From NCBI RefSeq assembly GCF_055900595.2, contig NZ_CM148325.1: 64,000 bases of DNA; one strand, given 5' to 3'. The notes beneath the pieces were generated by a model. It saw only the letters and a list, made by a program, of their open reading frames with translations, searched no databases and was not told the origin of the DNA. This document shows, in pieces, positions 9,315-43,848 of the stretch. The position numbers were made by a program, and so were the translations under genes. Every line of letters begins with the position of its first letter. Position 1 is the first letter of the stretch.

Positions 9315-10502
<1,188 letters not shown>

Positions 10503-10542: not shown

Positions 10543-11976
10543 CTAATTATTCTGATAAATATCTTTATACAAACGGCTTTCAAAACGCACTAACGGAATG
10601 CGGCGATTACGCTGATCCGCGGGTTCTACCGCATAGCCAGAAAGATATTGTACAAACGCCATTCGTTGCCCGCTCGCTGTGGTAATGAATCCCGCCAGGT
10701 TATATACCCCCTGCAAAGAGCCGGTTTTTGCTGAGACCTTTCCGTCCACGCCAGCCTGATGCAGGCCCGCACGGTACTGCAAAGAGCCGTCATAGCCTGC
10801 CAGCGGCAGCATAGAGATAAAGTTAAGTTCATTGTCATGTTGGGCAATGTATTGCAGCACCTGCATCATGGTGGCAGGTGCAATCAGGTTATGCCGCGAA
10901 AGCCCTGAACCATCGGCAATAATCGTGTTACCAATATCGATACCAGCTTGCTGACGCAGGATCTGACGTACGGCATCCGATCCGGCCCGCCATGTTCCGG
11001 GCACATTGAAGCGCGCATGGCCTATCATGCGGAAAACCGTATCGGCAATCATGTTGTCTGACTTTTTCAGCATAATCTTAAGCAGATCGTGCAGCGGGGC
11101 CGACTGTTTACTGGCAACTACCGTTCCGGGTTCATTAACCTGAGTCTGGCGCAGTAGTGTTCCGCTCCAGGTGATACCTGCCTGTTTTAACTCATCTTTC
11201 AGAATTGCACCGGCATAGCTGGCTCCATCCTGTATGGCAAAAGCCAACGGGAGCGGCTCAGAACGTTGTGGCAGGCATCCGGTCAGCGTAAAGCGGTTCA
11301 GGTCGCCTGGCACCACATCCAGCTCGCAATATTGCGCTTCGGCAGAACCACGGGGGAGGGTGCGTACCTGGCTGAACATCGTAACAGGGTAATAAGATGC
11401 CACGCGTATAAAGGCCATATCACCGGGTTTTTGGGCACTGTAGAGCGAGACGGAGAAACAGTTGCGGTCAACTATGGCGGCGGCAGGCGGAGCGCTAAAG
11501 CATTGTGTCATGTCATTCCACGGCCAGCCGGGGGCTTTATCGTGGCTGGCAAAAATGGAGGTGTCTATCAACACATTACCATCAATTTGGTTGACGCCAG
11601 ATTTTTTCAAAGTCGTGACCATATTGCGAATATCCTGACGTTTTAACGTCGGATCGGCACCAAATCGCGCCACTAAGTCACCCTTGAGTACGCCGTTTTC
11701 CACATTGCCTTTGGTTTCAAGCGTAGTAGTAAAACGAAAATCGGGGCCGAGTTGAATCAACGCCGCCAGCGCAGTAATCACTTTCTGCGTACTGGCGGGC
11801 AGCGCCATCTGCTGACTGTGGTAATCAATAGCGGGGGCCGATGCGCCGACTTTTTGCACCATCAGGGCAAGGTTGGCACCAGCGGGGAGTTGAGTAATGT
11901 ACTCATCAACATTCGCGGCCTGAACACTGAACGCTATACAGCTGGTCAATCCGATGATAAATCTGGAAAATCGCAT
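10543..11976 (-). CDS. dacB: D-alanyl-D-alanine carboxypeptidase/endopeptidase PBP4
   Basis: 477 aa ORF with signal peptide and STQK active-site motif. Confidence 0.95.
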   Translation of the reverse strand: MRFSRFIIGLTSCIAFSVQAANVDEYITQLPAGANLALMVQKVGASAPAIDYHSQQMALPASTQKVITALAALIQLGPDFRFTTTLETKGNVENGVLKGDLVARFGADPTLKRQDIRNMVTTLKKSGVNQIDGNVLIDTSIFASHDKAPGWPWNDMTQCFSAPPAAAIVDRNCFSVSLYSAQKPGDMAFIRVASYYPVTMFSQVRTLPRGSAEAQYCELDVVPGDLNRFTLTGCLPQRSEPLPLAFAIQDGASYAGAILKDELKQAGITWSGTLLRQTQVNEPGTVVASKQSAPLHDLLKIMLKKSDNMIADTVFRMIGHARFNVPGTWRAGSDAVRQILRQQAGIDIGNTIIADGSGLSRHNLIAPATMMQVLQYIAQHDNELNFISMLPLAGYDGSLQYRAGLHQAGVDGKVSAKTGSLQGVYNLAGFITTASGQRMAFVQYLSGYAVEPADQRNRRIPLVRFESRLYKDIYQNN

Positions 11977-12094
11977 AATCTCGCGCTAACAACCTGGAAT
12001 CGAGCCGTCATACTACGGCGCAACGCCCTATAAAGTAAACGATGACCCTGCGGGAACTTCAGGGTAAAATGACTATCAAAATGTGAATTGCAGC

Positions 12095-12128
12095 TGACCT
12101 GGGACTTGTACCCGGGTCGGTATTTTTT
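12095..12128 (+). promoter_or_regulatory. Terminator-like hairpin plus T-run inside the greA leader (candidate GraL-type attenuator)
   Basis: gacctggg...cccgggtc stem followed by ttttttt, about 100 bp upstream of greA start. Confidence 0.4.
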
Positions 12129-12223
12129 TGCTTCTGGTCCCGGTGAGGAGTTATGCCGGGCAGGCCGAACAGCCGGGGTGGGTGAAGACTTGCCCCATCA
12201 GGAATATTCAAGAGGTATAACAA

Positions 12224-12700
<477 letters not shown>

Positions 12701-12744
12701 GAATTACCCAATACTCAAGATGTTGATGTATTGTAAAGAAAGGA

Positions 12745-12769
12745 AAAAGGCCGCTATGCGGCCTTTTAT
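12745..12769. terminator. Terminator-like hairpin between convergent greA and yhbY
   Basis: aaaaaggccgc-tatg-cggccttttat. Confidence 0.5.
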
Positions 12770-12855
12770 CAACGAACAGAGCGTGGCATTTTGCTCTCCT
12801 GCCTGCGGAAAACCCCTCGTTTTACACAGCAAATGTGTGTAACTTTAGGATAATC

Positions 12856-13149
12856 TTAGCGTGGCAACGAGATTTTACGTTCTTTAGTTGGGCGATAAAG
12901 CACCAGCGTTTTACCGATGACCTGTACATTACAGGCGCCGGTTTCGCGCACGATAGCTTCCACGATCAAGGTTTTAGTTTCGCGATCTTCGGTGGCGATT
13001 TTCACCTTGATGAGTTCATGGTGCTCTAACGCTTGTTCAATCTCGGCCAGCACCCCTTCGGTCAAACCATTACTGCCAAGCAGAACAACTGGCTTGAGCG
13101 GATGTGCCAGACCTTTCAGGTGCTGTTTTTGTTTAGTACTCAGATTCAT
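12856..13149 (-). CDS. yhbY: Ribosome assembly RNA-binding protein YhbY (CRS1/YhbY domain)
   Basis: 97 aa ORF divergent from rlmE. Confidence 0.9.
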   Translation of the reverse strand: MNLSTKQKQHLKGLAHPLKPVVLLGSNGLTEGVLAEIEQALEHHELIKVKIATEDRETKTLIVEAIVRETGACNVQVIGKTLVLYRPTKERKISLPR

Positions 13150-13172
13150 CGTATTTTTTGCTTACGTTGGGA

Positions 13173-13200
13173 TTGAAAACGGGTCATTCTACCGCCATCT
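13173..13200 (+). promoter_or_regulatory. Candidate sigma-32 heat-shock promoter of rlmE-ftsH
   Basis: TTGAAA at 13173-13178 and CCGCCATCT at 13192-13200, resembling the CTTGAAA / CCCCATNT heat-shock consensus. Confidence 0.4.
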
Positions 13201-13274
13201 CCCATATATCACCAAATAGGCGCGTAAAAATTTACGCAATTGGTTACGATGAGTTATCCCCATGGGAAAGTTAA

Positions 13275-13904
13275 ATGACAGGTAAGAAGCGTTCTGCCAG
13301 CTCCAGCCGCTGGCTTCAGGAACACTTTAGCGATAAATATGTTCAACAGGCACAGAAAAAGGGGTTACGTTCCCGTGCCTGGTTTAAACTTGATGAAATA
13401 CAGCAAAGTGACAAACTCTTTAAACCGGGAATGACGGTTGTCGACCTTGGTGCTGCTCCGGGTGGTTGGTCACAATATGTGGTCACCCAAATTGGCGGCA
13501 AAGGCCGCATCATCGCTTGCGATCTTTTACCTATGGATCCTATCGTTGGTGTGGACTTTCTTCAGGGCGATTTTCGTGATGAACTGGTGATGAAAGCACT
13601 GCTGGAGCGCGTTGGCGACAGCAAAGTCCAGGTTGTCATGTCCGATATGGCACCAAACATGAGCGGAACACCGGCGGTGGATATCCCCCGTGCCATGTAT
13701 CTGGTGGAACTGGCGTTAGAAATGTGTCGTGATGTATTAGCGCCAGGTGGCAGTTTTGTAGTGAAGGTGTTCCAGGGCGAAGGTTTCGATGAGTATCTAA
13801 GGGAAATTCGCTCCCTGTTTACGAAGGTCAAAGTTCGTAAGCCGGACTCTTCTCGTGCACGTTCGCGGGAAGTGTATATTGTAGCGACCGGGCGTAAACC
13901 CTAA
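13275..13904 (+). CDS. rlmE: 23S rRNA U2552 2'-O-methyltransferase RlmE (FtsJ/RrmJ)
   Basis: 209 aa ORF with SAM-binding [13 protein letters not shown] motif. Confidence 0.95.
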
Positions 13905-14003
13905 CCGGGAGATTTCAGACGAAAGTTTGAAAGATGCTGGATATAGAGTATCCTGACGCTGTTTTTAACACAGTTGTAATAAGAGGTTAATCCCTTGAGT
14001 GAC

Positions 14004-15938
14004 ATGGCGAAAAACCTAATACTCTGGCTGGTCATTGCCGTTGTGCTGATGTCAGTATTCCAGAGCTTTGGGCCCAGCGAGTCTAATGGCCGTAAGGTGG
14101 ATTACTCTACCTTCCTACAAGAGGTCAATAACGACCAGGTTCGTGAAGCGCGTATCAACGGACGTGAAATCAACGTTACCAAGAAAGATAGTAACCGTTA
14201 TACCACTTACATTCCGGTTCAGGATCCGAAATTACTGGATAACCTGTTGACCAAGAACGTCAAGGTTGTCGGTGAACCGCCTGAAGAACCAAGCCTGCTG
14301 GCTTCTATCTTCATCTCCTGGTTCCCGATGCTGTTGCTGATTGGTGTCTGGATCTTCTTCATGCGTCAAATGCAGGGCGGCGGTGGCAAAGGTGCCATGT
14401 CGTTCGGTAAGAGCAAAGCGCGCATGCTGACGGAAGATCAGATCAAAACGACCTTTGCTGACGTTGCGGGCTGCGACGAAGCAAAAGAAGAAGTTGCTGA
14501 ACTGGTTGAGTATCTGCGCGAGCCGAGCCGCTTCCAGAAACTCGGCGGTAAGATCCCGAAAGGCGTCCTGATGGTCGGTCCTCCGGGTACCGGTAAAACG
14601 CTGCTGGCGAAAGCGATTGCAGGCGAAGCGAAAGTTCCGTTCTTTACTATCTCCGGTTCTGACTTCGTAGAAATGTTCGTCGGTGTGGGTGCATCCCGTG
14701 TTCGTGACATGTTCGAACAGGCGAAGAAAGCGGCTCCGTGCATCATCTTTATCGATGAAATCGACGCCGTAGGCCGCCAGCGTGGCGCAGGTCTGGGCGG
14801 TGGTCACGATGAACGTGAACAGACTCTGAACCAGATGCTGGTTGAGATGGATGGCTTCGAAGGTAACGAAGGTATCATCGTTATCGCTGCGACTAACCGT
14901 CCGGACGTTCTCGACCCGGCGCTGCTGCGTCCTGGCCGTTTCGACCGTCAGGTTGTGGTTGGCTTGCCAGATGTTCGCGGTCGTGAGCAGATTCTGAAAG
15001 TTCACATGCGTCGCGTACCATTGGCACCCGATATCGACGCGGCAATCATTGCCCGTGGTACTCCAGGTTTCTCCGGTGCTGACCTGGCGAACCTGGTGAA
15101 CGAAGCGGCACTGTTCGCTGCTCGTGGCAACAAACGTGTTGTGTCGATGGTTGAGTTCGAGAAAGCGAAAGACAAAATCATGATGGGTGCGGAACGTCGC
15201 TCCATGGTGATGACGGAAGCGCAGAAAGAATCGACTGCTTACCACGAAGCAGGTCACGCGATTATCGGTCGCCTGGTGCCGGAACACGATCCGGTGCACA
15301 AAGTAACGATTATCCCGCGCGGTCGTGCGCTGGGTGTGACCTTCTTCTTGCCTGAGGGCGACGCAATCAGCGCCAGCCGTCAGAAACTGGAAAGCCAGAT
15401 TTCTACGCTGTACGGCGGTCGTCTGGCAGAAGAGATCATCTACGGGCCGGAACATGTTTCTACCGGGGCGTCCAACGATATTAAAGTTGCGACCAACCTG
15501 GCGCGTAACATGGTTACCCAGTGGGGCTTCTCTGAGAAACTCGGTCCGCTGCTGTATGCGGAAGAAGAAGGTGAAGTGTTCCTCGGTCGTAGCGTAGCGA
15601 AAGCGAAACATATGTCCGATGAAACGGCACGTATCATCGACCAGGAAGTGAAAGCACTGATCGAGCGTAACTATAATCGTGCGCGTCAGCTTCTGACCGA
15701 CAATATGGATATTCTGCATGCGATGAAAGATGCTCTCATGAAATATGAGACTATCGACGCACCGCAGATTGATGACCTGATGGCACGTCGCGATGTACGT
15801 CCGCCAGCGGGCTGGGAAGAACCAGGCGCTTCTAACAATTCTGGCGACAATGGTAGTCCAAAGGCTCCGCGTCCGGTTGATGAACCGCGTACGCCGAACC
15901 CGGGTAACACCATGTCAGAGCAGTTAGGCGACAAGTAA
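14004..15938 (+). CDS. ftsH: ATP-dependent zinc metalloprotease FtsH
   Basis: ATG at 14004 gives [15 protein letters not shown]..., 644 aa; Walker A GPPGTGKT and zinc motif HEAGH; ORF-track start 13995 is a TTG extension. Confidence 0.95.
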
Positions 15939-18780: not shown

Positions 18781-18867
18781 GCCGAGGTGGTGGAATTGGT
18801 AGACACGCTACCTTGAGGTGGTAGTGCCCAATAGGGCTTACGGGTTCAAGTCCCGTCCTCGGTACCA
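18781..18867 (+). tRNA. leuU: tRNA-Leu (anticodon GAG)
   Basis: GCCGAGGTGGTGGAATTGGTAGACACGCTACCTTGAGGTGG...GGTACCA; cloverleaf with long variable arm; directly downstream of secG. Confidence 0.95.
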
Positions 18868-22470: not shown

Positions 22471-22547
<77 letters not shown>

Positions 22548-22669
22548 CTTTCCCTTAGAGTCCTTTTTCAAATATACTGTGAAGACTTCGGCCTTCGTAG
22601 TGGGATTTGAAAAAATCCTTCTGGAAAGTGCTCCAGACCGCAGTTGCGGTTATAGGGTTCAGTTATATA

Positions 22670-22694
22670 AAGCCCCGATTTATCGGGGTTTTTT
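22670..22694 (+). terminator. Terminator/attenuator-like hairpin between metY and rimP
   Basis: aaagccccgatt-tatcggggtttttt. Confidence 0.5.
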
Positions 22695-22753
22695 GTTATC
22701 TGACTACAGAATAACTGGGCTTTAGGCCCTTTTTTTATGTCTTGGGGGTGGGC

Positions 22754-27418: not shown

Positions 27419-27435
27419 GGTTTTTAGGGTTCTAT

Positions 27436-27510
27436 GCGGGATAAGGCGTTTACGCCGCATCCGGCATGGATTGCCTGATGCGACGCTGGCGCATCTTATC
27501 AGGCTACGTG
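27436..27510. repeat. REP (repetitive extragenic palindrome) elements between infB and rbfA
   Basis: gcgggataaggcgtttacgccgcatccggc... and ...gcctgatgcgacgctggcgcatcttatcaggc, typical REP sequence. Confidence 0.55.
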
Positions 27511-28978: not shown

Positions 28979-29344
<366 letters not shown>

Positions 29345-29360
29345 TTCTTGCGAGTTTCAG

Positions 29361-29387
29361 AAAAGGGGCCTGAGTGGCCCCTTTTTT
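29361..29387 (+). terminator. rpsO intrinsic terminator hairpin
   Basis: aaaaggggcc-tgag-tggcccctttttt. Confidence 0.65.
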
Positions 29388-29589
29388 CAAACTGACGGCA
29401 GCAATTCACTGGAAACTAATGTATTGTTGCTATGAATGATCTTCCGTTGCAGAGGTTCGCGCGGCTAATGAGAGGCTTTACCCACATTGGGCTGGGTTAG
29501 GGTTGTCATTAGTCGCGAGGATGCGCAGAAGATCGGGTATTAACACCAGTGCCGTAAGGTGCTGTCTAAGAAAGAGAAAGGATATTACA

Positions 29590-43673: not shown

Positions 43674-43848
43674 GTCGGATGCGGCGTAAACGCCTTATCC
43701 GACCTACGGTTTGCATCGTTGTAGGCCTGATAAGACGCGGCAAGCGTCGCATCAGGCAACGGCAGTCGGATGCGGCGCAGGCGCCTTATCCGACCTACGG
43801 TTTGCATCGTTGCAGGCCTGATAAGACGCGGCAAGCGTCGCATCAGGC
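43674..43848. repeat. Tandem BIME: two near-identical 84-bp REP-pair units at 91-bp period
   Basis: Unit 1 43674-43757 and unit 2 43765-43848, each gtcggatgcggcg...gccttatccgacctacggtttgcatcgttg.aggcctgataagacgcggcaagcgtcgcatcaggc. Confidence 0.7.

Follow-up and report, generated by a model that had tools for sequence, protein, structure and literature searches.

A hairpin in the greA leader of Escherichia coli that very probably corresponds to the known GraL terminator

The 5' leader of greA in the Escherichia coli chromosome analyzed here carries a G+C-rich hairpin followed by a run of seven T. We conclude that this element is GraL, i.e., the intrinsic (Rho-independent) terminator of the greA leader, together with the short RNAs that it releases, and we put the probability of this reading at about 0.96. 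No feature of the sequence contradicts it. The element is already known. Indeed, a reading of the raw sequence recovered a leader terminator that had been characterized experimentally (PMC2836576, PMC6829880) and curated in Rfam (RF01769). The anatomy of the element, its identity to the K-12 sequence, the Rfam match, the covariation and the absence of an antiterminator come from the present analysis, while termination efficiency, heterogeneity of the 3' ends, promoter specificity, feedback by GreA and effects in trans are taken from published experiments. GraL is of biological importance because it sets the amount of GreA and subjects it to feedback, GreA being the main factor of transcript cleavage and fidelity. 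As an intrinsic terminator, it is also unusual in that its 3' ends are scattered. Positions are those of the window, i.e., the whole stretch of 64,000 nucleotides that was analyzed (contig NZ_CM148325.1, RefSeq assembly GCF_055900595.2), and the features discussed are collected in Table 1.

Table 1. Features of the greA leader and of its surroundings in the window.
Feature	Position	Strand	Details and basis
obgE/cgtA	9330-10502	+	
dacB	10543-11976	-	divergent from greA
greA P1 promoter (sigma-70)	12042-12070	+	-35 ATGACC 12042-12047, 17-bp spacer, -10 TAAAAT 12065-12070; consensus scan, 9/12 matches
greA P2 promoter (sigma-E)	12053-12080	+	GGAACTT 12053-12059, 16-bp spacer, TCAAA 12076-12080; read from sequence
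P1 transcription start	12075	+	A then U; published +150 anchor; fits ApU priming (PMC2836576)
GraL 5' single-stranded segment (+1 to +18)	12075-12092	+	AUCAAAAUGUGAAUUGCA; C at +17 (12091); stem begins 12093
P2 transcription start	12086	+	A then A (12086-12087); 11 bp downstream of P1; ApA priming
GraL terminator hairpin	12093-12121	+	11-bp stem 12093-12103 with 12111-12121, 7-nt loop 12104-12110; scan, folding, covariation
U-rich tract	12122-12133	+	A-T7-G-C-TT; seven T at 12123-12129; sequence
Remaining greA 5' UTR, read-through mRNA only	12134-12223	+	poorly conserved save CAGGAA 12199-12204 and Shine-Dalgarno AGAGGT 12211-12216
greA CDS (158 aa), controlled by leader terminator	12224-12700	+	ATG at 12224
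yhbY	12856-13149	-	convergent with greA
rlmE	13275-13904	+	
ftsH	13995-15938	+	

The greA leader lies among the chromosomal genes obgE/cgtA, dacB, greA, yhbY, rlmE and ftsH. The original prediction had pointed to a stem gacctggg...cccgggtc with seven T behind it, and these elements are found exactly there (12096-12103, 12111-12118 and 12123-12129), the eight base pairs being the core of a longer stem of 11 bp. In a consensus terminator scan of positions 11000-13500, this hairpin came out as the strongest terminator-like site, with 11 pairs, 7 of which are G-C. The 61-nt segment folds at -21.4 kcal/mol, compared with -11.9 ± 2.6 kcal/mol for dinucleotide shuffles (z = -3.74), and none of the 200 shuffles folds as well; the hairpin alone accounts for a structure of -18.6 kcal/mol. 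It persists when the 59-nt RNA or the whole 166-nt leader is folded, and the minimum free energy structure pairs the A-rich 5' segment of GraL with the U-tract. A stable G+C-rich hairpin is thus followed by 7 consecutive U on the transcribed strand, which is the signature of an intrinsic terminator. The element was also correctly said to lie about 100 bp upstream of greA (the T-run ends 95 nt before the ATG), in the sense orientation and away from the end of any gene. Indeed, the hairpin is on the sense strand of greA and is not at the 3' end of a gene because the neighboring dacB is divergent. For the same reason, a terminator of dacB was considered and rejected, since it is the 5' end of this gene, and not its 3' end, that faces the hairpin. 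A terminator acting on the minus strand was rejected as well, no T-tract following the hairpin on that strand.

The identity of the element was established by comparison with Rfam and with K-12. The Rfam model RF01769 (Enterobacteria greA leader) aligns from end to end (model positions 1-124 of 124) with positions 12007-12128 of the plus strand. The score is 124.9 bits (E = 7e-24), the gathering score being 60, and the match was found again when the whole window was scanned. It ends in the U-tract, 96 nt before the greA ATG, on the sense strand. The 247-bp intergenic region differs from that of K-12 MG1655 at four aligned positions (12050, 12091, 12145 and 12196), none of which falls in the GraL stem, loop or U-tract. 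Hence, the 11-bp stem and the AU7GCU2 tract that follows it in the greA leader are identical to those of K-12, and the name GraL, given in the original prediction, proved to be right.

The sequence is also widespread in the species. Several E. coli chromosomes match the 281 bases across the dacB-greA intergenic region with 100% identity. At megablast sensitivity, the region is present in 5425 of the 5426 complete E. coli genomes and missing from a single one. One genome has two copies of it, and one copy is on a plasmid record. Within GraL itself, 58 of the 59 nucleotides are those of K-12; the sole difference is at +17 (12091), which is C here and U (T in the DNA) in K-12. Only 11 of the 5426 complete genomes carry the exact 59-nt GraL with C at +17, while 5204 genomes fall in the band of 95-99% identity to the GraL of the window; among those listed, the full-length matches are 98.3% identical, i.e., they carry one mismatch. 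The +17 C allele of the present strain is therefore rare. In silico folding predicts the same structure for both alleles, and position +17 belongs to the segment from +1 to +18 that is needed for full autoregulation by GreA. No GraL feature is annotated in the 12 RefSeq records listed among the matches, nor at the loci of K-12 (NC_000913.3) and of the PGAP-annotated strain Z0117EC0005. Consequently, the identification rests on Rfam and on the literature, and annotation alone would miss GraL in the RefSeq records examined.

The published coordinates can be laid on the window without conflict, whether one takes the position of the AUG, the segment from +1 to +18, the 11-bp stem, the AU7GCU2 tract, the start dinucleotides or the offset between P1 and P2. 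In K-12, the AUG of greA is at +150 relative to P1 (PMC6829880, Figure 1); given the ATG of the window, this sets +1 of P1 (Table 1). P1 and P2 initiate 11 bp apart, P1 being primed by ApU and P2 by ApA with the sigma-E holoenzyme (PMC2836576). Our placement of the P2 start is good to ±1, since the published chain lengths of 37-47 nt (PMC6829880) would give 12087. The position of the predicted P1 promoter agrees with the published P1 start, and its -10 block, GGTAAAAT, hardly varies among 97 distinct relatives although it lies outside the pattern used to search for them. The P2 motif follows the sigma-E consensus GGAACTT N16 TCNAA (PMC2836576, Figure 1 legend), and its TCAAA is at least 90% conserved in the alignment of relatives (A2). 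At the level of motifs, the overlapping sigma-70 and sigma-E promoters and their two starts 11 bp apart would thus be those of GraL; the activity of P1 and P2 is known from experiments in K-12 (PMC2836576).

From these starts, the RNA ahead of the stem measures 18 nt (P1) or 7 nt (P2). The P1 segment, +1 to +18, is the one that was scrambled in PMC6829880 (Figure 6) and found to be required for full autoregulation by GreA; its mean conservation is 0.70. The chain lengths published for GraL, 49-59 nt from P1 and 37-47 nt from P2 (PMC6829880), can also be placed: counted from P1, 49-59 nt bring the 3' ends to 12123-12133, i.e., to the U7-G-C-UU tract, so that GraL itself covers 12075-12133. The 3' end forecast at about 12128 falls inside this range. 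On the other hand, the interval first delimited (12061-12223), which runs from the -10 box of P1 to the start of greA, was wider than the element.

Two short motifs of the leader deserve mention in their own right. Some 20 nt before the greA ATG, the CAGGAA block (12199-12204) stands out by its strong conservation amid a drifting leader. It could be linked to the P3 and P4 5' ends, which were published as processing products rather than promoters (PMC2836576), or to translation initiation. An AUG-UGA start-stop pair occurs in GraL at 12081-12086, without a Shine-Dalgarno sequence. Relatives do not preserve it, UUG AAA or AUG CAA standing in its place, and it is probably meaningless.

The conservation of the element was studied in metagenome contigs, using a search pattern restricted to the promoter (AAAGTAAACGATGNCCNNNNNNGAACT, 12032-12058) so that the terminator was free to vary; the resulting set is biased toward genomes that keep the promoter block. 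This search yielded 120 metagenome loci with 85 distinct versions of the GraL segment. In an alignment of 86 sequences, 93.3% of the cells of the stem are paired, against 21-56% (at most 55.6%) once the 3' side has been shifted by 1-3 columns. The doubly changed cells number 63, compared with 25.4 ± 6.7 in shuffles, of which none in 500 reaches 63, and compensatory changes affect 6 of the 11 stem pairs. RNAalifold, to which the structure was not supplied, recovered 10 of these 11 pairs. All 86 variants have a T-rich tract, with 6 or more T among the 10 nt that follow the stem (counted in alignment columns). The structure is thus kept in 86 relatives with compensatory changes, far beyond what chance would give. 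The conservation profile is as expected for a terminator: 0.80-0.82 for the arms, 0.79 for the U-tract, 0.34 for the loop and 0.33-0.43 for the downstream leader, with a new rise at the ribosome-binding zone. Of 96 distinct loci, 89 have a GreA open reading frame behind the element, starting 130-224 nt (median 150) past the position equivalent to P1; in the other 7, the contig ends early or the ungapped identity measure failed. The uninterrupted tract of 7-8 T, however, is found only in 13 of the 86 variants, which are E. coli-like, most relatives having TTTTCTTTT (alignment A2, columns 53-62). The "imprecise" termination of E. coli may therefore not be general and is perhaps particular to the E. 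coli clade.

The function of this terminator has been described in K-12. Potrykus et al. (2010, PMC2836576) reported that the greA leader contains an intrinsic terminator, made of an 11-bp stem and of AU7GCU2 behind it, which gives arrays of short transcripts that they named GraL. In vitro, these transcripts are freed from immobilized templates without any factor, and they are not chased by Gre factors (PMC2836576). Termination was measured at about 60% in vitro and about 66% in vivo, and it is constant through growth (PMC2836576). In vivo, RNAs of 40-60 nt were detected, and on Northern blots the terminator must be present for the two clusters, of about 45 and 55 nt, to appear (PMC2836576). 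Removal of the terminator raises reporter output about 3-fold (PMC2836576, PMC6829880). GreA itself acts on the element: in a greA deletion, the leader fusion is derepressed about 3-fold and GraL levels are about 4-fold lower (PMC2836576, PMC6829880), and the catalytically dead GreA D41A is unable to repress the leader fusion (PMC6829880). This feedback is independent of the promoter and requires the GraL sequence in cis (PMC6829880). It could not be reproduced in vitro, hence the suspicion that an accessory factor takes part or that the effect is indirect (PMC2836576, PMC6829880). In published K-12 work, overproduction of GraL improved fitness and altered the expression of more than 100 genes, effects that a scrambled version did not have, and nudE is cited by Dylewski et al. 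(2019, PMC6829880) as a likely target in trans. Our literature searches for genome-wide mapping of GraL 3' ends and for work on GraL after 2016 returned nothing beyond the 2019 paper; an RNA-seq paper (mBio 2014) has GraL in its reference list only.

Taken with the anatomy described above, these experiments suggest the following sequence of events in the present strain. Transcription would begin at the overlapping P1 and P2 promoters and produce, after a short unstructured RNA, the 11-bp hairpin and the A-U7-G-C-UU tract. About two-thirds of the polymerases would then release their RNA over some 11 nt, giving the two size classes of GraL, while the remaining third would read through into the greA mRNA. 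By this way, the terminator would fix the output of greA as a constant fraction of the strong activity of P1 and P2. A negative feedback would be superimposed in vivo, by which catalytically active GreA increases GraL and decreases read-through via an additional factor or step. Once released, GraL may have a secondary role in trans, with nudE as proposed target.

A more specific version of the feedback would be that the terminator is a direct sensor of the state of RNA polymerase as regards backtracking or cleavage. The cleavage stimulated by GreA at the U-tract would commit complexes to release, possibly with the help of a factor binding the segment from +1 to +18. We hold this to be rather unlikely. 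Two of our observations bear on it only weakly, namely the moderate conservation of the +1 to +18 segment, which is confounded by the overlapping sigma-E promoter, and the confinement of the uninterrupted U7 to E. coli-like sequences. If such sensing does take place, the rare U-to-C change at +17 would shift the set-point.

The leader might instead house a classical attenuator or a riboswitch-like device, in which terminator and antiterminator are in competition and the outcome depends on a signal. We consider this very improbable. The original prediction had spoken of a "leader-encoded attenuator or short leader RNA", of which the terminator and the short RNA stand and the classical attenuator does not, for want of any possible antiterminator. 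The survey of Naville and Gautheret (2010, PMC2965389) did list the enterobacterial greA leader among its attenuator candidates, with "a clear antiterminator structure", and RF01769 contains further helices on the 5' side of the terminator. However, the candidates of this survey were drawn from the end of the upstream gene, start sites being disregarded (PMC2965389), and the mapped transcripts leave no room for the antiterminator that it claimed: only the short A/U-rich RNA of either start precedes the stem, and, until the 3' arm has been transcribed, the nascent RNA can form nothing more stable than -2.0 kcal/mol, against -18.6 kcal/mol for the hairpin. As to the extra helices of the model (12007-12077), they lie almost wholly upstream of +1. 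Model positions 1-68 correspond to 12007-12074, upstream of the P1 start, and a third small helix straddles +1. In the first helix, substitutions on the free 5' side break pairs in 22, 36, 19 and 16 of the 97 distinct loci (at four positions, respectively); its 3' side is the -35 region of P1, fixed by the search pattern, so that compensatory changes there could not show. Rather than RNA structure, these helices seem to reflect conserved promoter DNA, which possibly also takes part in the control of the divergent dacB. Within the model, the last hairpin alone corresponds to the structure of GraL, and it is a modestly useful point that the 5' two-thirds of RF01769 are promoter DNA upstream of the mapped start.

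Two further arguments come from the literature. Termination efficiency is reported to stay constant through growth (PMC2836576), and the authors of PMC6829880 themselves state that GraL is neither an attenuator nor a riboswitch, since its effector raises termination. The attenuator controlled by a leader peptide fares no better: no conserved leader open reading frame was found among the relatives. The reading frames that overlap the leader are only mechanical ones starting with TTG (12088-12258 and 12128-12220), and the conservation profile shows 12134-12190 to be poorly conserved, with indels; the leader peptide was thus rejected. Since no antiterminator is possible in the mapped transcripts and since efficiency is constant, GraL is a partial leader terminator modulated by GreA, and not a classical switchable attenuator.

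Another reading would make the hairpin chiefly the 3' end of an independent small RNA gene acting in trans, its effect on greA being incidental. The effects of GraL overproduction on fitness and gene expression, lost with the scrambled version, and the citation of nudE as likely target would speak in its favor. Nevertheless, we give it almost no credit. In the relatives that can be checked, the element is always directly upstream of greA and in the sense orientation; removing the terminator raises the reporter about 3-fold, and the feedback by GreA needs GraL in cis. The conserved AUCAAA at the 5' end of the RNA coincides with the -10 box of the sigma-E promoter and with the starts, hence its conservation may be explained without a seed for base pairing. 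A role in trans is better seen as an addition to the leader terminator than as an alternative to it.

Finally, the idea of a functionless inverted repeat next to a T-run by chance is refuted, even though terminator-like patterns are not rare here (7 in 2.5 kb versus 3.0 ± 1.7 in shuffles), by conservation and covariation over 86 variants, by the shuffled folds, by an Rfam score twice the threshold, and by the biochemical and in vivo evidence published in K-12 for an identical terminator sequence.

Several other elements were observed in the window. In the dacB-greA intergenic region, two more blocks are nearly invariant, AATCTCGCGCTAAC (11977-11990), which adjoins the start of dacB, and ATACTACGG (12010-12019), in the dacB-proximal half; they are probably the ribosome-binding site, the 5' UTR or the promoter of dacB, on the minus strand. 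Between the convergent greA and yhbY, a perfect 10-bp hairpin, AAAAGGCCGC-TAT-GCGGCCTTTT (12745-12767), is flanked by A- and T-runs on both sides and is a typical bidirectional terminator. The Rfam hits STnc420 and STnc540 (12729-12774, on both strands) are below threshold and were discarded, as they reflect only this generic greA/yhbY terminator hairpin. At gathering thresholds, the Rfam scan of the whole window also returned two tRNAs, the rimP leader (RF01770), two naRNA4 on opposite strands, the ribosomal S15 leader and the SraG sRNA (the matches being at 18781-18864, 22471-22544, 22636-22736, 27435-27505, 29017-29131, 29360-29531 and 43724-43795), all of which are known elements of the present E. 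coli region.

Compared with known systems, the closest is GraL of K-12 (PMC2836576, PMC6829880), with which the element shares the dacB-greA locus, the promoters, the 11-bp stem, the 7-nt loop, the AU7GCU2 tract and the AUG at +150. It differs at +17, just before the stem, and by the three other SNPs (12050, 12145 and 12196). With canonical intrinsic terminators such as lambda tR2, it has in common a G+C-rich hairpin, a U-tract behind it and release without any factor. GraL departs from them on several points (PMC2836576): it is located in a 5' leader and not at the end of a gene, its stem of 11 bp is longer than usual, the U-tract is interrupted by an A at its start, its efficiency is only about 60-66%, and the positions of its 3' ends vary over about 10-11 nt instead of 1-2. 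Lastly, leader attenuators and riboswitches whose terminated product acts in trans, such as SreA of Listeria (cited in PMC6829880), provide a third comparison. Unlike these leaders, GraL has neither aptamer nor antiterminator, and its effector, GreA, raises termination, which is the opposite of an antiterminating signal.
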